A DNA stretch of 63,168 bases, counting the filler, from Craspedostauros australis (lineage: Eukaryota), in NCBI GenBank assembly GCA_030167865.1. It is 10 parts of 10 records of this genome, joined end to end, with 100 filler letters (N's around TTAATTAATTAA, not from the genome) between each part and the next. Parts side by side here need not be neighbours in the genome. Positions count along the whole stretch, not along the records: positions 43,277 to 56,651 come from JALAGF010003810.1; 9 more parts are not named here. One strand, written 5' to 3'. The notes under the pieces were generated by a model. It saw only the letters and a list, made by a program, of their open reading frames with translations. It was not told the origin of the DNA and searched no databases. The translations under genes and the position numbers were made by a program. Numbering within the stretch: position 1 is the first letter of the stretch; every line of letters begins with the position of its first letter. Below are positions 15,129 to 59,070 of this stretch, piece after piece.

Positions 15129-18100
15129 TCATTCCATCGGACTCGTATGGTTCGGAGATGGACTGGACGGGGTGATGGAAGCAGTTTGGATTGGCGAGAA
15201 GCACATATCCAGCAAAGGGTTCCGCACTGTCATCTTCAGTGGATCTGAGTTATGCTCATCGGACTGCCTGTGACGAGAATGTGGGGACGGTAATCGGAGT
15301 GGTGGACCGACGGATGCTGCAATCTCATCTTTTTCATCGGTCAGAGCAGCTGCGGCGCGGCTATCAAGGCGATGGCTGCGCCGAGAGGGAAGTTCTTGAT
15401 TGCCCCAACGTGGTGATAGAGGCGTGTTGTGATGTGGCGTCGTCCATCCGACAGCGTTATTGTGGGGAGGCTCCCACGGAACACAAGACGGGCGCCCCGG
15501 TGACGTCTGCTGCGGCTCATCGTACCACTTGGATACACCCGTTGCAATAGACTTAAAGTCCAAGTGCCGCGCCAAAGCAAGCGATCCCAACGGCTCCCGC
15601 AGCATCTCTGTGGCAGGAGGCTGATCCTGGTTACTGAGAAAACTGCGACACGCCCAGGCAGCAGTTTCATTGGGGATGGCGCTTATCCCAGACCCATCTG
15701 GCGCAGATCGTGGATTGATCATTTGCATACGGCTGCCGCCCGCGACGGTAGACGAGTGGCTGAGTGTGAGAGATTCGGCGTGTGGGCCGTCTTGTGAGAT
15801 GGTGGTGGCCCCATTGCGGCGGATGTTTTGAGATGGATGCGCTCTCATCAGCATGACGTGAGGCCGGCGGACAAGTTGGATCGCCACTGCTTGGCCATAC
15901 TGTCGGGGCGCAAAGTCTATGCGATGGATGTTTGCTGTCTTGTTGTTTGATGCTGCGTCTGCAGTTGTTGTTGTCGTCTTTGTCTCCGTCTCCGTCGCTG
16001 TGCTTGTCTTTGCATTTTTCGAGTCTGATATCTCTCCTCCATGTTGGACTGGCGACTGTTGATCTCCTTGGGTCTGCGCATGCTTTGCGCTTGCCGGTTC
16101 GATATTCGGCAGCGGTATGTATCTGTACTTCGATCGTGTCTTGCGTGTGATAGCCTCCAAGGTGCACTTGTCGAGATCCCGATGGAAGAGTGGATGGTAG
16201 ACGCATGTTCGGAGTCTTGATGGCCGAATGGGAGTATGGCGAAGATGTAGGGAGGATCAATAGAAGTGATTGTATTAGGAAATAGAAGGACAGTGGGCCA
16301 AATCATAGCAGAGCGGATCAGAGTAGGATGCATAGTGTGCGGGGATGTTGAGGGGCTCTTTGAGAGCATCGACTGAGCAGATATGAAGATACGGACGGGC
16401 ACTGAAACAAGATGACTGTCGAAGCCGCGTCATGCGAGACATGCAGTGGTGTACATGTGAATGTCACACTCTGTTTCTCTACTTACTTGTTGGACCTTGT
16501 GCGCCAGCCATGTGCATTCAAGAGCCTACGAAACGATGATATCTTGTCGTCTACCATTACAAGTACACCAGTGCGTAGGTAAGTAGACGAAACATCCAAG
16601 GTTGCAAGGGTAAGAATAGATCCGGACAATCGAAAGACGATTCGGTGAGAGCGCGCGTGATGGCGTGCAACGAAGGACACCTCCGCCACAACAGAACGCC
16701 GGGACAAGTCGGGAACGAATGATGGCATGACACACATTGGGAGACGGACACTTTGGGTTGGGCCCGTAGCGACTACTCACGTGCAAAGTATCGGGACAGG
16801 GTCGTCGGCATATCCGGGTGGTTCTGATCATATGTAAAGGCAATGCCATCGGGTGTCCATTCGAAGGGACCGTCGTCTTGCGATGATGAATCAAGGTCAC
16901 ATAGCATGCGGTGCACACGTTGCGGAAAGGGAATGAGACGTCGAGATCGCCCTGCTGTGCGAGAGAGTAATGGTGTACGGCGATTCTTGTTCTCCGACTT
17001 GAACGTGGATCGTGCCTTGGTCTTTGCTGTTGACTTTGCTTTTGAGGCTGACAATAATTCAAGAGCACTCTGAGGTTGGTCGTTGGTTGAGTCGATGTTG
17101 CTACGAGTAGTAGCTACGCTGCTTTTGGAGTGGCCATGGGAGATGGGAGCAATTTCAGGGGCCTCTGTGACGACCAGCGGATGCTGATCATCTTGCATGA
17201 GAACAGAGGAAAGATATTGCTTCCGAGGAAGGAGCTCCAACGCGCGCCTTCGCTGCCGTTCCATGGACCTGCTCACCCGCCGTGAAATCCGGTGGTTTGT
17301 TCCACGGTTGTTGTTGCTTCGGGCAGGCGCCGGCGATGGCTGTGAGAGATGTGGTGGCGGTGGGCATTTGAGTTGCGATCGGGCTGGATGGTGCGAGGAA
17401 GTCGGTTCGATGACCTTTCGTCCACGTCTCGAAGACGACGCTCGCAAGAATCGCAACAGTTGAGAAGGGGTCTTTTGCTCGGTTTCTTCCTGTTTGATTG
17501 CAGCGGCGACGTTGGCTTCGTCAGGAATACGAGTAGGACCGGCGTTGCCATTGCTCCTCTTGATATTGTTGGTGCGTTTGGCTTGTTCCCCACCGGCGAT
17601 TGCTCCTGCGGTTGTGTGTGTGGCCAGAGCAGTCCATGGAGTAAGGCGGAGACCAATTCCGTCTTGGTTCGATGGTTGTCGCTTTGCGATCAACGCCATG
17701 TTGCGGATGTTGCTTGCATGTATGCTTTTGCCAACAGGACGCTGTGTATTCGCGCGGCGAGATGAAGGCGTTAGCGCCGATTGCGCCGAGTTGAGAAATG
17801 AACAAATGAACGAACAAACAAAGTGCGTGGGGTAAGTTGGTGCTGGTCTGATGGAATCTACGTCGAGGAAGTAGACACAGGTTCCTTGAAACGTGCACAG
17901 AGGAGTGCGACCTCCAACAAGGATCAGGCTGCGCTCTCCATTGTGGACGCCCCGCTTGTTGCTGACTTGTGTCCTTACCTCCATTTGGTTTGCGACGCTC
18001 GACAAGTTCTCTTCGTTCTCACAACCAATGTCATCATGACTATCATCATCACTATTGCTATCTTGTGGTTCTTGCTTGATCCCGTGCAGAGCAATGATGT

Positions 18101-18461
18101 CAACAATGTTGGTGTTGGCATTCGGGATGGCGCTGTCGCTGTCGCTTGTGAGGGATTGTTGGATGCATCCACTGTCGTCTACCTTGATACCTGCATTTTG
18201 CGACAGAGATGAAGTCTTGCGATGAGACTGACATCTAGCATGGGTGTAGCGACGAGGCTGCGCATCGCTTGTGCCACAAGGATGCAGCGGCTCCATCTTG
18301 TGTCTTGCGTTACCTGCGCGTACTCTAATGCGATCTGAATGGTATTGGATGAAGCGTGAGTCTTCCTGATTGATCTTTGTTTCGTGCAGAACTATTATGT
18401 CGATTGTTGATTGTTGACTGCTGATTGATGGTAGATGATGATCCACACGACAGAGACACAA
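15129..18461 (-). CDS. HSF-type transcription factor, copy A' (multi-exon, 5' end unresolved)
   Basis: Same as copy A, plus a 55-nt segment encoding QSTIDIIVLHETKI. Confidence 0.7.
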
Positions 18462-50189: not shown

Positions 50190-51467
50190 ATGAGCGTGAT
50201 CCTGGCAACGGGCGGCTACGACCACAAGATCCGATTCTGGGATGCCCCTTCCGGTGCCTGCGTCCGCGTCATCCCCTTCCCCGATTCTCCCATCAACAAG
50301 TTGGAGATCACGTCGGGCAAGCAGTGCATCGCCGCTGCGGGCAATCCCAACATCGAGATCTTCGACGTCGACAGCCAGAACCCGCAGCCCGTTCTGACAT
50401 TGAAGGGGCACAAGGACGCCGTCACGTCGATCGGGTTTCAGATGGATGCGCGTTACCTGTACAGCGGATCGGAGGACGGCACGATCAAGCTGTGGGATCT
50501 GCGCGGATCCTCCTACTCGCGCAGCATGGATTGCAAGGGACCCGTGCGGTCCGTCACGTTGCGCGAAGATCGCGATGAGATCATCTCGGGCGATTCCAAC
50601 GGGATGGTCAAGATTTGGGATTTGGGGCGAGATGCGGCCGAGAATGGCAGCATCGTCGCTATGCAGCCCGGCGATTCGGGGACCTTGACGTCCGCGATTC
50701 AGGCCGTGGATATATCGGCGGATTCCAAGACGTTGGTGGCAGCCAACAATCATGGCATGGTCTTTGCTTGGGATCCCAACACGCCGGTGACGGTGATGGA
50801 CGAGTCTCCGATTGTGTCTCCAGATGCGCCTGTCGACGGCGATGCCTCCAAAAGAAGGCAGGATCAGTTGGATGTGGATCTAGACAACAAGAGTGCTGCT
50901 GCCAATGTTGACGGCAATGATGATAATGGCTATGGTGATGATGGTGATGTTGGCGACAACAACACTGGCAACCGCAGCACAAAGGATGTTAATGATGACG
51001 CTGACGACGAAGGAGAGAGTGACGACGTCCACCACGACAGCGCTGACCACGAACAGGAAGATCGAGATCAAAAACTGCCACAGCACGATGCAGCTACACC
51101 ATCATCAACAGCGACTTCCAATTCACCCCAACTCAAGCTGCTCACCCAATTCCGCGCTCACCCCATCGGCACTTACTGCCTGCACGCTCGCCTTGCACCA
51201 AGCCGCGACATCCTCTGCACCACCAGCAGCGATGGCTCCGCCAAGCTATGGAACACGTCCACGTGGATGCTGGAGCACGATCTCAAGCGGCATTCCAAAT
51301 GGGTCTGGGATGCCGCATTCTGTGAGGACTCCAGCTACCTCGTCACCGCCAGCAGCGACAAGACTGCCAAGCTGTGGAATCTTGGCACCGCCGGCGACGT
51401 CGTCCGACAATACCATGGGCACGAATCCACGGTTACGTGCGTGGCATTGAACGATAACAGTAATTAG
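50190..51467 (+). CDS. LST8: TOR complex subunit LST8 (WD40) with an acidic insertion
   Basis: MSVILATGGYDHKIRFW, YSGSEDGTIKLWDLR, KWVWDAAF..DSSYLVTASSD and C-terminal CVALND. Confidence 0.93.
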   Translation: MSVILATGGYDHKIRFWDAPSGACVRVIPFPDSPINKLEITSGKQCIAAAGNPNIEIFDVDSQNPQPVLTLKGHKDAVTSIGFQMDARYLYSGSEDGTIKLWDLRGSSYSRSMDCKGPVRSVTLREDRDEIISGDSNGMVKIWDLGRDAAENGSIVAMQPGDSGTLTSAIQAVDISADSKTLVAANNHGMVFAWDPNTPVTVMDESPIVSPDAPVDGDASKRRQDQLDVDLDNKSAAANVDGNDDNGYGDDGDVGDNNTGNRSTKDVNDDADDEGESDDVHHDSADHEQEDRDQKLPQHDAATPSSTATSNSPQLKLLTQFRAHPIGTYCLHARLAPSRDILCTTSSDGSAKLWNTSTWMLEHDLKRHSKWVWDAAFCEDSSYLVTASSDKTAKLWNLGTAGDVVRQYHGHESTVTCVALNDNSN

Positions 51468-51570
51468 CATGGAATAGATTGTAGTGCTCTCTAGAGCGTG
51501 CTCTGGAACACTTCAATACCATGCGCGCGCTACATGCGGTTGAAGTAGAGATACCGTACCAAAACACTTT

Positions 51571-52113
51571 CTATTTGTAGGACGAGTTCATGAATTCCAG
51601 CAACTCTTGCCTCGCCTTTTCATGCGCCAGATCTTCCGCCGTCTTGTTGATCTTCAATTTGAGCTTCTTGCCTGTGATCACGCTGCGGCGAACATCGTCG
51701 TCGCCGTCGCTCTTTCGTTTCTTGGTCTTTTTGCTGCTCTTCTTTTTCGGTTTCTTTGACTTCTTCTTCTTCTTGCGACGTTTCTTGCGTGCTTCCTCTT
51801 CGCTGCTGTCGCTGTCGCTATCGCTGTCGCTATCATCGCGCGATGGCCGTCGTCGCTTGGAAGATGATCGTTTTCGTCGTTTCGATTTGCGGCTTGACTT
51901 CTTTTTGGCGACCTCATCGTCGTCGCTGTCATCGCTATCGCTGTCGTCATTGTCCCGCCTTCGTTTCTTGTGCGATGGCTTTTTCTTTTTGCGCGATTTC
52001 TTCTCGCGGCTTTCCTCTTCGGACGAGGAGGAGCTGCTGTCGCTGCTGTCATCGTCATCTGACGAGGAAGAAGAGGAACTCTCTTCTTCCTCTTTTCGTT
52101 TGGATCGTCCCAT
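51571..52113 (-). CDS. Low-complexity Ser/Asp/Lys/Arg-rich, probably nuclear protein
   Basis: ATG at 52113. Alternating acidic and basic tracts end in an ordered-looking RRSVITGKKLKLK..RQELLEFMN motif. Confidence 0.75.
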   Translation of the reverse strand: MGRSKRKEEEESSSSSSSDDDDSSDSSSSSSEEESREKKSRKKKKPSHKKRRRDNDDSDSDDSDDDEVAKKKSSRKSKRRKRSSSKRRRPSRDDSDSDSDSDSSEEEARKKRRKKKKKSKKPKKKSSKKTKKRKSDGDDDVRRSVITGKKLKLKINKTAEDLAHEKARQELLEFMNSSYK

Positions 52114-52688
52114 GGTGAAGTGTTGCGGTAATCTGTCCAATTATATTAAAGTGGTGGACTGGGAGCGAATCTCAATGCTGTATAATATTATATCTGCGTT
52201 CGAAATTGTTCACGAAAGGCAAAGAAAACGATGATGAAGTTGATGATGAAGTTGATGATGTGATGGCGATGGCTGACGATGGGATCATGTGATGTTCCAG
52301 CACTTGCGGTGTGCCAAGGAAGACAAAAGCAAACACCATTCGAAAACACGCGCACTTGCCGACTGCGAGGCACCCATGATGAGTTTGGTTGGTGGGAGAT
52401 GGCGGGAAAACACTGACGACGGACGCACAAGAATGAACGTAACCACGACTGACTGATTCCAAAGTGATTCTGTGTTGGTGGTCGCTGCCGACCCATCACC
52501 AACAGTTTGCGACAAACAAAGTGCACTTCCGTGGGTTCATCCACTCACCCACTCATCCATCGCGTCCATCGCGTCCATTGCATCTAGCAATCCAACATCC
52601 TCGAAGTCTCTATCGACCACTCTGACACGCTGTCAGAAGGAAACTCGAAGGACGGAAACGCGAGGGAAGGAAGGAAGAATGACAAGAG

Positions 52689-54068
52689 ATGAGAGCGTTT
52701 TACTTTCGAAGAAAGATGAAACGACCTTCTATGCCAACTCTGTCGGCATTGGTGCTCCTGTCGTCGACATTGCATCTACTGTCGCTATTAACACTGCCAT
52801 CATTTCGTGATGGAAGCACCGCACTCTTTTGTGAGGCACTCAGCACCACAGGAGCAGTGACACCAACGCCGTCCATCATTGAACAGCAGCGGCAAAACCA
52901 AATGCATCATCAGCACCAGCGTGACTACCCAGACTCATCTGCGGACACCAGCGCTGAATGCGATCTGCGTGCTCCCACCTCGTCTCGCATTGACGACAAA
53001 CACGAAATTCTCGCGAGCAAATGCCAGGACTACACCATTCCGAATCGACGCATCCAATACAAGCACGTTGAATGGAGCGGTTCTGCTCTGCCGATGCAAA
53101 TCTTCTCTGCTCCGAACAGCGAGAAGCAGGCGCCGAACTACAAAACCAACCTTCCTGCGGGTCGCAAACCCACCTCCCCAAACGACAATGATGTCGACCT
53201 CAGTTCCATCAGCATAGAAGAGCTCCAATCCATGAATCTCTCCAAATCGTCGCATGAACTCCTCAAACGATATTCCGAACTCTCCGAACGACAGCAGAGG
53301 CAGCTCATCCAGAAGATACGTGCCGAGCATCGCGCGAGCCAACCACTGGATCCAAATCTGATGGAGATTCTGTACTGCGACGAGCACATCTGCGTCGCCA
53401 ACAAACCTAGCGGCATCCTCAGCGTCCCTGGCCCACGGCGCAATCCTTCCTTGGCGAACCTGCTGTACGACGCTCTGCAACCCACCGATCTGGATTCCGT
53501 TGATCAGATGATCGTGCATCGGTTGGATATGGCGACGAGCGGCATCATCGTCTACGCGCTGACACGCCAGGCCTTGTGCCAACTGCACTTGGATTTCAAA
53601 CAGCGGAACGTCATTAAGATCTATCACGCGCTCCTTCCAGGACACTTGGACGATCGATACGCGGAAGGCGAGATCGATGTCACGATGGAACGAGATCCCA
53701 ACAATCCACCCTACATGCGCGTCTACAACGTCGCGACGGCCGACTTGGACAAGGAAACGCCAGCATTCTCGCCGGATCACAAGTTCTTTCGAGAATCCAA
53801 AAAGACCAGCCAGACCACGTACCGCGTATTGCGACGGCACACCAGCGGCAACGATCCCATGACGCGCATCGAACTGAAACCATGGACGGGACGGACGCAC
53901 CAACTGCGAGTGCATTGCGCGCAAGTGTTGGGATATCCAATCTTGGGTGATGAGATCTACAGGTCGGAGGATTTGGACATTCCCTTGTGTTTGCATGCGC
54001 ACAGGCTGTGCATCAATCATCCCATCTCAGGCGCACCCATGATCTTTCAAGTCGATCCACCTTTTTGA
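52689..54068 (+). CDS. RluA-family pseudouridine synthase with N-terminal targeting-like extension
   Basis: NKPSGILSVPG, catalytic VHRLDMATSG, TGRTHQLRVH, PILGDEIY and LHAHRL. Start could be 52689, 52716 or 52731. Confidence 0.93.
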   Translation: MRAFYFRRKMKRPSMPTLSALVLLSSTLHLLSLLTLPSFRDGSTALFCEALSTTGAVTPTPSIIEQQRQNQMHHQHQRDYPDSSADTSAECDLRAPTSSRIDDKHEILASKCQDYTIPNRRIQYKHVEWSGSALPMQIFSAPNSEKQAPNYKTNLPAGRKPTSPNDNDVDLSSISIEELQSMNLSKSSHELLKRYSELSERQQRQLIQKIRAEHRASQPLDPNLMEILYCDEHICVANKPSGILSVPGPRRNPSLANLLYDALQPTDLDSVDQMIVHRLDMATSGIIVYALTRQALCQLHLDFKQRNVIKIYHALLPGHLDDRYAEGEIDVTMERDPNNPPYMRVYNVATADLDKETPAFSPDHKFFRESKKTSQTTYRVLRRHTSGNDPMTRIELKPWTGRTHQLRVHCAQVLGYPILGDEIYRSEDLDIPLCLHAHRLCINHPISGAPMIFQVDPPF

Positions 54069-54187
54069 AACTACACCGTTCTTTTCGGTTGGAAATAGGA
54101 CGCAATGGAGTGCTTGTATTAACATGCTCTTGAATCATAATACATTAAGGTATAGTAGTAACGACAGCACTCTAACGAGAGATGTGA

Positions 54188-54273
54188 CGAAACCGCATGG
54201 CGTAATTGATTCTTTCGTGAATCTGACATCCTCGATTCAGTCATTCCATCAGTTCATACCATTGCGTTTTCTG
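54188..54273 (-). promoter_or_regulatory. Candidate atypical SECIS-like hairpin in the 3' UTR of the SelU gene
   Basis: Minus strand reads GAAAACGCAATGGTATGAACTGAT-gga-ATGAC-TGAATC-gaggatgtca-GATTCA-CGAA-aga-ATCAATTACGCCATGCGGTTTC: a long lower helix and an AUGA/GA core, but a short upper helix and no apical AA. Confidence 0.35.
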
Positions 54274-54469
54274 CATTTCTTTGTCTTGCTGCGTTCTTTG
54301 GGATTGCTTGTGATGTTCTGTGCCTCGCTACAACTGCGGCATCAGACAGATAATCGTTCCGTGGAGGCGTCGCTTGAGAGGAGTTCACTTGGTTGCTCGT
54401 CTTGACAATCGCTCTGCAATATCATACGCAGTCGTGCGAATGCTCAGCCTTTCTCTTTCCCTCTTCTTT

Positions 54470-55492
54470 CTATTTATCAGCGTCCACCCCAATTTTCAGC
54501 ACTTCCAATGCAGCCACGATATCTGCCACCGGCAAGTCTTCACCAGTCTCTTCTTGGTAGGAGTACCTGGGCTTGCCTTTCGTATCGAACAGTATCAAAC
54601 CGCCTTTCAGTAGACCTTCTCCTTTCGTATTCCCGCTGATATTCTTCTCCTGAATCCGACTTATCCAACTGAAGACGCCCATCATCATGCTCCACAGTGC
54701 CGGCAAGTCTGTGGCACGTCGATCACCCAGCGCCTGATAGAATGCGAACGATTTATCGCAAAAGAGCGGCGCGTCAAGAAAATACTTCTGGGAGAACTCC
54801 ATGAGACCTTCATCGTCGATGCCCGTCTCCTTGACAACACCGAACAGTCCGAAACCCTCCAATGAATTTGTGTCGGCAGCAAGCGCGCTCAAGGTAAGTG
54901 CGTGCTCCCGACACAAGAATCATCCTGGTCGGCGAACGACGAAGCAAATGCCTAGAGAGAGAGATTGTGCGTTGCGCAGCGCAGCGCAGAAAATGCAGAG
55001 CCGAGTTACGCAGCGTTAGTTGTGCTTTCGTTGAGACGCAACACAGCGCAGCATAACGCAACACAGCATACTGTGGCAAACTGCGGGTCGACGTCCACTT
55101 ACTCCCGTATTTCCCAGTCTGTTCTCGGATCATCTCGCGACTTCGCAACACATCAATTTCAGAAACGGAGTCCTTCGTGATTCTCAATTGGACCATCTGT
55201 TTGGTACCGGAATGAATAGAAGGATGCAATGCAACGCAATGGAACGGAGAATTGTGAGGGTGCAGGACGACAATGACAGTCCATGCAATGCAAACCAATG
55301 AGTGCGCACTTGCGCTATCCATATGTACTCGTACATACGTACCGCCGCATCATTCAAGGCAGTTGGGTTGACGGTGGGGGCCAGCAGCATACGTGAAGAT
55401 GGAGCCGCAGCGGTTGCTCGCTGTTCCAACTGCCTTTGCACCGATTCTACGACCGCCTCGGGAAAGACCCGTCGGGAACACGAGCTGGCCAT
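54470..55492 (-). CDS. SELENOU: Selenoprotein U / PRXL2A-like (AhpC-TSA_2) protein with in-frame UGA; exons 55492-55343, 55196-55103, 54951-54470
   Basis: Canonical GT-AG introns give a continuous 241-aa frame containing ICFVVRRPG-TGA-FLCREHA (UxxC; TGA at 54922-54920), followed by GVVKET, FYQALG, GNTKGEGLLKGG and YQEETG. Confidence 0.85.
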
Positions 55493-56177
55493 GGTGGATG
55501 CAATACACTGTCCTGAAATTGACGTGTATTTGGGCGTGAACGTAGTATTGTGATTGGAGTGATAATTGTGAGTATCACCAGCTGATGGTCTCTGCTTCCA
55601 TGATGATGACGATGAATGTTCCTTGGTGATGTGCAGATTAGAGAGGTTTCGCATTCCACTCAGCCATTCCCGCGAGGGAGTCATAACCTGATAGAGACAT
55701 TTATCCGGGGGTGGCAAGAAATCACCCCCTCGCTCAGTGGAATTGATTTCCATTTCTGGCGCAGAAATGGAAATCATTTCCACTCAGAGAGTCCCGGCAA
55801 AAGTGTCACTTCCACATGGATAATAGACTTTGGCCAATCATGTTGTGTTATTTCGTTCTAGTTTAGTCCTTCTTGTCCTCCACATCCGTCTACGTTGGCC
55901 GCCATCGTAGACTTTTGCGTTCGTTTTGGAACAACAAAGAGAAAAACATCATCCATCACATCGCCATCACATCACTGTCACATCACTGTCACATCACCAT
56001 CGCTCGATTCTCTCATCTCGATTCTCTCATTCCAAGACAATCATCCGTCACAACCCACCTCATGACTACACCTCGATGCTCCACATCGACCAACACCTTG
56101 CACGAGACATCAACATTCCCACCACATACCACCACCTGTGTCGTTTCTGACGCATATTCTGCTTCCCTCTATTCGTC

Positions 56178-56651: not shown

Positions 56652-57514
56652 NNNNNNNNNNNNNNNNNNNNNNNNNNNNNNNNNNNNNNNNNNNNTTAAT
56701 TAATTAANNNNNNNNNNNNNNNNNNNNNNNNNNNNNNNNNNNNNNNNNNNNCGCTCCGCCCCTCCCCTCTGTTCGTGGATGTCTTCCCACAGTCATTCTT
56801 TGTTTTGTTTCGTGTTCGCCTGTTTCCTTGTGCTTTATCCACTCCGGAGTTGGGCTTGTCAAGTGCCTGGGCGGTCACGTCGAAGACCCTCTTTTCTGTT
56901 GTTTCCGTCACACCAGAGTTGCATTCGTGTGGTTTTCTGTTTGCGTCTGCTCATTGTCGCCAACTCGCCTTCAACACCCATGCGCATGCTACGGCCTTTT
57001 TCAGTCTCGTCCGATGCCACATATCCGTGCGGGTGCGACACAGTGGCTACAGTCAACATCCTGCAGCCTGTGCGCACCTTCCTCGTATCGGATCTCTGCA
57101 GTACCCTGTGACTCTGCCTGTGCTTTCTCCCATGCAAATATTCCTTCCTGCTTCTATGCATGCCCAACCCCTGGCTCCGACGCCAGCAGCTATCCCATTT
57201 TTGTAGCCATTGCCTGCCTCTTTACTTTCTTGAATCTACAACAACACATGCGATTCATATAATAACTTCTAGATAACTGCTTCTCCATGGGACAAGTTCG
57301 GGTGCAGGCTGCTTTTGCTGCGTTCGACACCTCTCCAGGTTATTCTAATGTACTTGTAATTCGTGCTGCCTCACCGTTCTGTTTGCGATGTGAGGAATCT
57401 CTGATGTTGGACGGACCATTCACGTGTCATACAAGCTGTGACATGTCCCATTCGGTGTGGTGTTACACCAGAGTAGTCGCAGTAATACCAAGAATAGCGC
57501 TCAGCAATACCATC

Positions 57515-59070
57515 GACGTCTGCGATGAGGATGCGGATGATGCTTGTCGCTGTCGTGAAGGTTGTGGTGTCTGTGAATGATGAGGATGCGGGTGAGGATG
57601 ATGCATGTCGATGTCGTGAAGGTTGTGGCGTTGGCGGATGATGAGGATGTGGGTGATGCTTGTTGCTGTCGTCAAGGTTGTGGTGTCTGTGAATGATGCG
57701 GGTGAGGATGATGCTTGTCGCTGTTGTGAAGGTTGTGGTGTCGGCAGACGATGAGGATGCGGGTGAGGATGATGCTTGTTGCTGTTGTCGACAAGGCTGT
57801 GGCATCAGCAAATGATGAGGATGCGAGTGAGGATGATGCTCGTCGCTGTCGTCAAGGCTGTGGTGTCTGCGGATGATGAGCATGTTGATGAGGATGATGA
57901 TCGTCGCTGTCGTCAAGGTTGTGGCGTCTGCGAATGATGAGGATGCGGGTGAGGATGATGATCGTCGCTGTCGTCAAGGTTGTGGCGTCTGCGAATGATG
58001 AGCATGCGGGTGAGGATGATGCTTGTCGCTGTTGCCAAGGTTGTGGCGTCTGCGGATGATGAGCATGTTGATGAGGATGATGCTCGTCGCTGTCGTCAAG
58101 GTTGTGGCGTCTGCGGATGATGAGGATGCGGGTGAGGATGATGCTCGTCGCTGTTGGCAAGGTTGTGGCGTCTGTGGATGATGAGGATGCGGGTGAGGAT
58201 GATGCTTGTCGCTGTCGTCGTCAAGGCTGTGGCGTCTGTGGATGATGAGCATGTTGATGAGGATGATGCTTGTCGCTGTCGTCGACAAGGCTGTGGTGTC
58301 TGCAGATGATGAGGATGCGGGTGAAGATGATGCTCGTCGCTGTTGCCAAGGTTGTGGCGTCTGCGGATGATGAGGATGCGGGTGAGGATGATGCTTGTCG
58401 CTGTCGTCGTCAAGGCTGTGGCGTCTGCGAATGATGAGCATGCGGGTGAGGATGATGGTCGTCGCTGTCGCCAAGGCTGTGGCGTCTGCGAATGATGAGC
58501 ATGTTGATGAGGATGATGCTCATTGCTGTTGTCAAGGTTGTGGTCTGCGGATGATGCGGATGAGGGTGAGGATGATGCTCGTCGCTGTCGTTGTCAAGGT
58601 TGTGGTCTGCGGATGATGAGGATGCGGGTGAGGATGATGCTTGTCACTGTTGTCAAGGTTGTGGTCTGCGGATGATGAGGGTGAGGGTGAGGATGAGGAT
58701 GATGAGGGTGAGAATGATGCTCGTCGCTGTCGTCGTCAAGGCTGTGGCGTCTGCGTCTGCGGATGATGCGGGTGAGGATGATGCTCATCACTGTCGTCAA
58801 GGCTGTGGCGTCTGCGGATGATGCGGATGAGGGTGAGGATGATGCTCGTCGCTGTTGTTGTCAAGGTTGTGGTCTGCGGATGATGAGGATGCGGGTGAGG
58901 ATGATGCTCGTCGCTGTCGTCAAGGTTGTGGTCTGCGGATGATGAGGGTGAGGGTGAGGATGATGAGGATGATGAGGATGATGAGGGTGAGAATGATGCT
59001 TGTCGCTGTCGTCGTCAAGGCTGTGGTGTCGGCGGATGATGAGGATGAGGATGATTCTCGTCGCTGTCGT
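57515..59070. repeat. 61-bp (58-64 bp variants) tandem satellite, roughly two dozen units
   Basis: Consensus approximately CGTCGCTGTCGTCAAGGTTGTGGCGTCTGCGGATGATGAGGATGCGGGTGAGGATGATGCT. Confidence 0.93.

Follow-up and report, generated by a model that had tools for sequence, protein, structure and literature searches.

A spliced selenoprotein U gene of Craspedostauros australis with a putative recoding hairpin after its UGA codon and a candidate minimal SECIS element

A locus in the genome of the diatom Craspedostauros australis raises the question of whether a reading frame broken by a single TGA encodes a selenoprotein and, if so, which RNA signals might direct the decoding of that codon. 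The window analysed here is a stretch of 63,168 nucleotides that joins ten parts of this genome. All coordinates refer to this window, and the gene lies on its minus strand. Coding exon 1 (55343..55492, 150 nt, codons 1–50) begins with the ATG at 55492 and is followed by intron 1 (55197..55342, 146 nt, phase 0), exon 2 (55103..55196, 94 nt), intron 2 (54952..55102, 151 nt, phase 1) and exon 3 (54470..54951, 482 nt), which holds an AhpC-TSA_2 (Prx-like) domain and ends in a TAG stop. Both introns run from GT to AG, and the second has a branch-point-like CTAAC motif near 55019. The spliced frame of 726 nt comprises 241 codons plus TAG, and its sole internal stop is the TGA at codon 92 (54920..54922) in VRRPG*FLCRE, where the frame, the transcript and conservation point to selenocysteine (Sec) at the first position of a (U/C)xxC motif. 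Exon 1 matches the N terminus of the full-length Cys homologue P0021 (E 9e-7) and exon 2 is 71% identical to the homologue P0004, so that the ATG at 55492 is supported.

The three exons, two GT-AG introns and 241 codons of the initial annotation proved exact both on re-splicing and by comparison with a transcript contig. This 1115-nt contig of run X1, which we presume to be RNA, spans 55551 to 54153 and omits exactly the 146 and 151 nt of the two introns; it covers at least 59 nt of 5′ UTR (55493..55551) and 317 nt of 3′ UTR (54153..54469). It differs from the genome only at 54613, a silent change, and at 54681, where Met becomes Thr, leaving the TGA unaffected. Thus, both junctions are present and the UGA is retained in the mature transcript, as represented by this one contig, which comes from a single study and from one of the three runs compared. 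Runs X2 and X3 yielded no SelU transcript contig. Use of an alternative splice site (CAG at 54927-54925) that would remove the TGA was not seen in the X1 contig, a form of evidence in which rare forms stay hidden. As had been foreseen for standard ORF callers, the protein collection holds a downstream fragment of 148 amino acids (P0002), which begins two codons after the TGA. It shares the Thr at 54681 with the X1 contig and is therefore not independent of it.

Several features surround the gene. A gene for an RNA pseudouridine synthase (PF00849; 52683-54068, plus strand) converges on SelU, with 85 nt between its end and that of the transcript contig, and low-complexity ORFs arise on both strands from degenerate tandem repeats (about 60 nt each) at 57370-58650 and beyond. 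The linker at 56652-56751, like seven similar sites, consists of paired runs of 44 N around the 12-base sequence TTAATTAATTAA (56696-56707); because these linkers are artificial, sequences across them need not adjoin in the genome. Two further contigs of the assembly (G000), L059 (C1201:8000-12094) and L060 (C3411:37000-41272), are 100% identical to window positions 51110-55204 and 50932-55204, respectively, and both stop at 55204, within intron 1. These probably represent assembly redundancy rather than three gene copies; other genes of this genome likewise recur as repeats of identical score.

Exon 3 matches the Prx-like domain PF13911 (E 5e-14, 53 bits against a cut-off of 27), and a profile built from 35 homologues finds human prostamide/PGF synthase (PRXL2B; 9us9, E 2e-17) as the nearest solved structure. 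This structure reads RRFG where SelU has RRPG, the motif that marks PRXL2A. The gene shares with SelU (SELENOU1/PRXL2A and the paralogues PRXL2B and PRXL2C) the PF13911 domain and a (U/C)xxC motif after RRPG with the UGA first. It is an intact and expressed SelU (SELENOU/PRXL2-family) gene with nothing distinctive at the protein level. The predicted product is a 241-residue thioredoxin-fold UxxC oxidoreductase, for which thiol-peroxide or disulfide reduction would be expected by family membership (PMC3473315; bioRxiv 10.1101/2025.05.29.656587). The gene is ordinary because Sec-containing SelU proteins have already been published for diatoms: two are listed for Thalassiosira pseudonana (Lobanov 2007, PMC2375036), and 20–44 selenoprotein genes are reported for each diatom (Jiang 2020, PMC7539508). 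As in T. pseudonana, the present genome has two UGA paralogues, the window gene and L004, together with the Cys paralogues L005 and L006. L004 (1240-2004; G000:C5611) is intron-free, has a 10-bp hairpin in the register common to the family and a SECIS-like element (60 nt inner length) 194 nt past its stop, and bears an N-terminal extension that resembles a targeting peptide. The available sections of those accounts of SelU describe neither a hairpin in the coding region nor a minimal SECIS such as the one considered below.

The RNA has two features that are less ordinary. The initial annotation was right about the UGA site itself, and it had included neither a conserved hairpin on the 3′ side nor a short SECIS-like core. 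The hairpin (54868..54916) begins at the fourth base after the UGA. Its outer stem of 9 bp joins 54916-54908 to 54876-54868, and the whole structure has 20 pairs and a predicted free energy of -28.5 kcal/mol. Folding of the 60 bases that follow the UGA gives a z score of -6.25 relative to dinucleotide shuffles, and the hairpin retains z scores of -3.65 and -3.24 (p 0.01) relative to synonymous shuffles; taken simply as the longest helix, the stem reaches only p 0.03. Among 74 windows along the spliced frame, the five with the lowest z all begin at codons 79–94. The 5′ arm can alternatively pair with an upstream CCGAC in the R-R-P codons (54945-54905, minus strand), an arrangement that would place the UGA in a loop and that coincides with low z in windows starting at codons 79–85.

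To compare this region among relatives, metagenome contigs were scanned with two peptide patterns located downstream of the motif and the hairpin, which yielded 35 loci. One of these, L043, forms a long branch and may lie outside the diatoms. Pattern scans also gave 123 matches in prokaryotic genomes and 22 in viral contigs, among which there were no relatives (by tblastn for the viral contigs). In the family stem, the codons for C-R-E (+3 to +5 relative to the UGA) pair with those for L-A-A (+13 to +15). Codon usage was examined in 21 UGA genes that are less than 80% identical and whose four-fold sites agree at 31% on average. Cys+3 is TGC in 20 of the 21, Arg+4 is CGC in 16 (background 0.15) and codon +5 is GAG in 17 (background 0.43), and on the opposite arm Leu+13 is CTC in 13 of 17 (background 0.17) and Ala+14 is GCG in 18 of 20 (background 0.16). 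The 30 comparable columns further on in the gene have a mean of 0.42 and a maximum of 0.61. Of the 21 genes, 17 have a helix of 8 bp or longer that begins 4–10 bases past the UGA, where shuffles that preserve the protein sequence predict 1.49; across the full set of 35 UGA genes the count is 30, against 2.21 expected. The other four of the 21 representatives have no 8-bp helix. The helix has a common register in 18 of the 21, with an onset of +5 to +10 in the relatives, and 89.9% of cells are paired in this family stem, compared with 28–52% when the stem is slid. In six loci the loop is split by an intron of 85–119 nt, so the stem in its compact form is a feature of the mRNA after splicing.

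The window gene is an exception to the family sequence that retains the structure. It deviates from the family codons at +3, +4 and +14 and is left with six of the nine family pairs, and a perfect 9-bp stem is re-formed 4 nt further along. In the tree the gene falls within a group whose members carry the family stem (support 99/99 and 100/100), so this register shift is derived; in this lineage, the codons of the C-R-E/L-A-A stem changed and an equivalent stem was rebuilt. In L038 the stem is shifted by 3 nt, and in L051–L053 a double change from C-G to U-A preserves it at the cost of an Ala-to-Met substitution. The re-formation of a stem after codon change suggests that selection acts on structure and position and not on sequence. 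Formal covariation gives a weak signal: the 22-row intron-free alignment contains one double change, its score is reached by 33 of 500 shuffles, and the covariation term of RNAalifold is unfavourable. An 8-bp helix in a different register is also present in the Cys paralogue L006. Among four further UGA genes in the genome, one has a strong fold after the UGA, the glutathione peroxidase (GPx) gene L015 (z -2.7, p 0.016; G000:C1455). The 5′ arm of that fold holds the 8-base word GCCGCGAG of the SelU family stem, three bases farther from the UGA, which may be common to the two by chance.

On these patterns, we consider it highly likely that the hairpin is a selected mRNA structure, and it is likely, with somewhat less assurance, that it stimulates recoding of the UGA. 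Features of this kind have been described as Sec redefinition elements (SREs) in SELENON, SELENOT and SPS genes (PMC8704476; PMC6844570; PMC4561486; PMC3541580). The SREs of SELENON, SELENOT and SPS2 and the HRE of SPS1-UGA have in common a coding-region stem-loop a few bases 3′ of the Sec UGA, conservation at synonymous sites and an accompanying SECIS in the 3′ UTR, and the SelU hairpin looks like such an element. In SELENON the spacer measures about 6 nt. The SelU hairpin differs in belonging to another gene family and lineage, in its 9–10-bp stem with a 21-nt loop that is often further paired, and in its rebuilt registers, and its assignment to an SRE role comes from sequence comparison. 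As far as the literature was searched, it is new for SelU: among papers that were mostly openly accessible, neither an SRE in SelU nor a diatom SECIS without an apical motif was found described, so that an earlier mention is possible, and the available sections of PMC3316567, PMC4989117, PMC3753652 and PMC8659212 hold nothing on either topic. Bacterial SECIS elements likewise form a stem-loop right after the UGA within the coding sequence, whereas here the genome encodes a eukaryotic eEFSec (PF21208, PF21131) and SBP2, the 3′ UTR has a kink-turn element, and no prokaryotic relative was found in the contigs searched.

The best-surviving alternative, which we regard as unlikely though it keeps some weight, is that a SECIS alone inserts Sec and that the stem arises incidentally from the conserved C-R-E and L-A-A peptides and from GC-rich codons, or serves mRNA stability. 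Few changes are truly compensatory, the two peptides themselves determine codon positions one and two in each arm, and L-A-A is also present in seven of 66 Cys homologues. However, the shuffles that yield so few helices by chance keep these very amino acids, rare codons are fixed in the two arms only, and the stem outlasts the register shifts of the window gene and L038 as well as the Ala-to-Met substitution of L051–L053. Moreover, the stem has decayed in two Cys loci. In L044 and L045, the Cys loci closest to a UGA gene, only 4 bp persist, and the stem of their UGA sister L040 is already weakened. Both loci retain a relic AUGAA core that matches that of L040, which points to a recent Sec-to-Cys change.

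A scan for SECIS cores gave a single match in the 3′ UTR of the window gene, a candidate minimal SECIS at 54214..54244 on the minus strand, with a GA|AUGAC core at 54244, an upper helix of 6–8 bp, 22 nt inside (-4.8 kcal/mol) and a closing CGAA. It lies 225 nt past the stop and 678 nt past the UGA on the mRNA, within the X1 contig. The chance of such a match is 0.06 for the core alone; requiring the GA upstream of it, a condition picked after seeing the data, lowers this to 0.004. The element has no AA or CC at the canonical distance (10–13 nt after the core) and fails the published SECISearch pattern (PMC2375036). An AUGAU at 54425 with a strong lower helix and 78 nt inside was considered and rejected, as it has a z score of -0.43 and no helix directly above the core, and it was also missed by the scans that recover the elements of relatives. 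An Rfam scan of 53900-55800 returned four chance matches and no SECIS, and RF00031 had no match among 121 scored candidates genome-wide. This null result is uninformative here; SECIS elements that lack a fixed helix and apical AA would account for it in a genome with several UGA selenoprotein genes.

The 3′ regions of relatives indicate that the short core is not an isolated case. A core with a closing helix is found in 15 of 20 representative UTRs, compared with 1.24 expected and none on the reverse strand, and in 22 of 33 UGA loci, compared with 1.64 expected, contrasts that are somewhat inflated by a core pattern tuned on these same data. L021, whose UTR is 3 nt long, and L047, which has no stop within the locus, were left out of the UTR count, in which 20 of the 21 representatives remained. 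The 15 matching cores read GA|AUGAC in 12 cases, have inner lengths of 22–83 nt and possess very variable stems; in one, an AA lies unpaired at the canonical distance, and at most six satisfy the published AA/CC spacing at the sequence level, so the apical motif may persist in some relatives. Eukaryotic SECIS elements of types I and II (RF00031; PMC2761289; PMC2375036) share with these the AUGA…GA kink-turn core in the 3′ UTR and a helix above it, although human SECIS elements need a 14–15-bp helix 2 and AAA/G or CC (PMC2761289), and the SelU-family cores have no fixed inner length. Among five other UGA genes of the C. australis genome, clear AUGAC…YGA hairpins with 51–77 nt inside are present in the 3′ regions of four (L004, L015, L016 and L018), and in L014 the hairpin is not clear. 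We judge it reasonably likely that the element at 54244, marginal on its own and classed as SECIS-like and not canonical, is the SECIS of this gene.

The machinery that such a signal would serve is encoded in this genome, in agreement with what had been stated for diatoms in general. A tRNA-Sec (76.6 bits, anticodon TCA) resembles by eye that of T. pseudonana (supplement of PMC2375036), and there are genes for SepSecS, SelD/SPS2 (itself with an in-frame TGA) and eEFSec (locus L058, domains PF21208 and PF21131). The best match to selB, L054, was rejected as eEFSec because it is EF-Tu-like, and the sole candidate for PSTK is weak (E 2e-4). In-frame TGA codons are also found in two of three GPx matches and one of two Rdx matches. 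An SBP2-like protein (E 7e-17 to human SBP2, 7zjw_B) is encoded by L091:1-1803 (G000:C4597, about 16511-18313, plus strand). Between a lysine-rich motif, which we take to be that of SBP2, and the L7Ae domain of this protein, an acidic RRM-like unit (Pfam RRM_1, E 4.5e-5) is repeated several times, a feature that may be related to the atypical SECIS.

A second alternative, which we consider improbable, is that readthrough of the UGA inserts a standard amino acid (Cys, Trp or Arg), driven by a strengthened hairpin because the SECIS has decayed, comparable to the HRE of hymenopteran SPS1-UGA. The window element is indeed the shortest of the 15 representative matches, the window hairpin is among the strongest of the related loci, and the SRE of SELENON gives Sec-independent readthrough without a SECIS (PMC4561486; PMC6844570). 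Nevertheless, the full Sec machinery is in place, the core keeps the family GA|AUGAC…GA consensus, and cores just as short (20–21 nt inside) occur in L051–L053.

The codon itself has been maintained. Its site is TGA in 33 of the 35 related loci, TGC in two and TGG in none (29 TGA and the two TGC in the main reading, with four more TGA read separately). The motif is covered by 79 of 182 homologous proteins, with Cys opposite the UGA in 66 and Trp in 13, and 21 more start just after the site; the expectation of Sec or Cys at RRPG(U/C)xxCRE agrees with most of these proteins and with the loci. Between the window gene and its five nearest loci, pS is 0.73–0.86, near saturation, and pN is 0.25–0.38. 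The dN/dS near 1 that had been named as the sign of a pseudogene is contradicted by these values. A transcribed pseudogene, or termination at the UGA with a separate downstream fragment, is accordingly very improbable: gene callers did deposit P0002, but that fragment is missing the first redox residue and would give only 110 amino acids from its first ATG, and one frame is conserved on both sides of a TGA shared by divergent loci. A variant code in which UGA means Trp or Cys throughout can be set aside almost entirely, as the Trp at the site in the 13 homologues is, for P0004, a translation-table artefact (the matching locus L021 carries TGA), TGG is absent from the loci, TGA serves as the stop of the neighbouring pseudouridine synthase frame (54066-54068), and the tRNA with a TCA anticodon is tRNA-Sec.

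The mRNA is spliced, UGA stands at codon 92, 149 conserved codons follow it, and the Sec machinery is present. The gene is almost certainly real and recoded, and the residue at codon 92, which the earlier proposal of recoding also held to be Sec, is very probably so given its Cys/Sec position, the conserved TGA, purifying selection and the machinery. It is probable, taking the reading as a whole, that a spliced SelU mRNA has its UGA decoded as Sec under the direction of a 3′ UTR SECIS and a coding-region hairpin. In such a mechanism, the spliced mRNA would be translated from 55492, the kink-turn core (54244-54214) would bind SBP2 and thereby recruit eEFSec and Sec-tRNA, and the hairpin 3′ of the UGA would disfavour or delay termination while Sec-tRNA is delivered, leaving the UGA to be read as selenocysteine.

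A broader reading can be offered only tentatively. Diatoms may use a variant of the Sec-insertion code in which all that is left of the SECIS is a kink-turn, its helix of no set length and its apical AA gone, and in which, for SelU, an obligatory hairpin after the UGA supplies the lost information. Under this reading, the hairpin would fix synonymous codons, bend the protein sequence and be rebuilt in new registers, and an SBP2 with RRM-like units might recognise either signal or both.

Taken alone, the gene amounts to a correction of annotation, and the RNA signals matter more. SREs are known mostly from animal genes, and the SelU hairpin would be a second deeply conserved example, from another eukaryotic supergroup. 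Its natural register shifts, compensations and Cys revertants offer variants for testing the roles of spacer, stem and loop in UGA recoding. SECIS elements without a fixed helix and apical AA would call into question the universality of those features and, if the variant Sec-insertion code is real, standard SECIS finders would undercount the selenoproteomes of diatoms.
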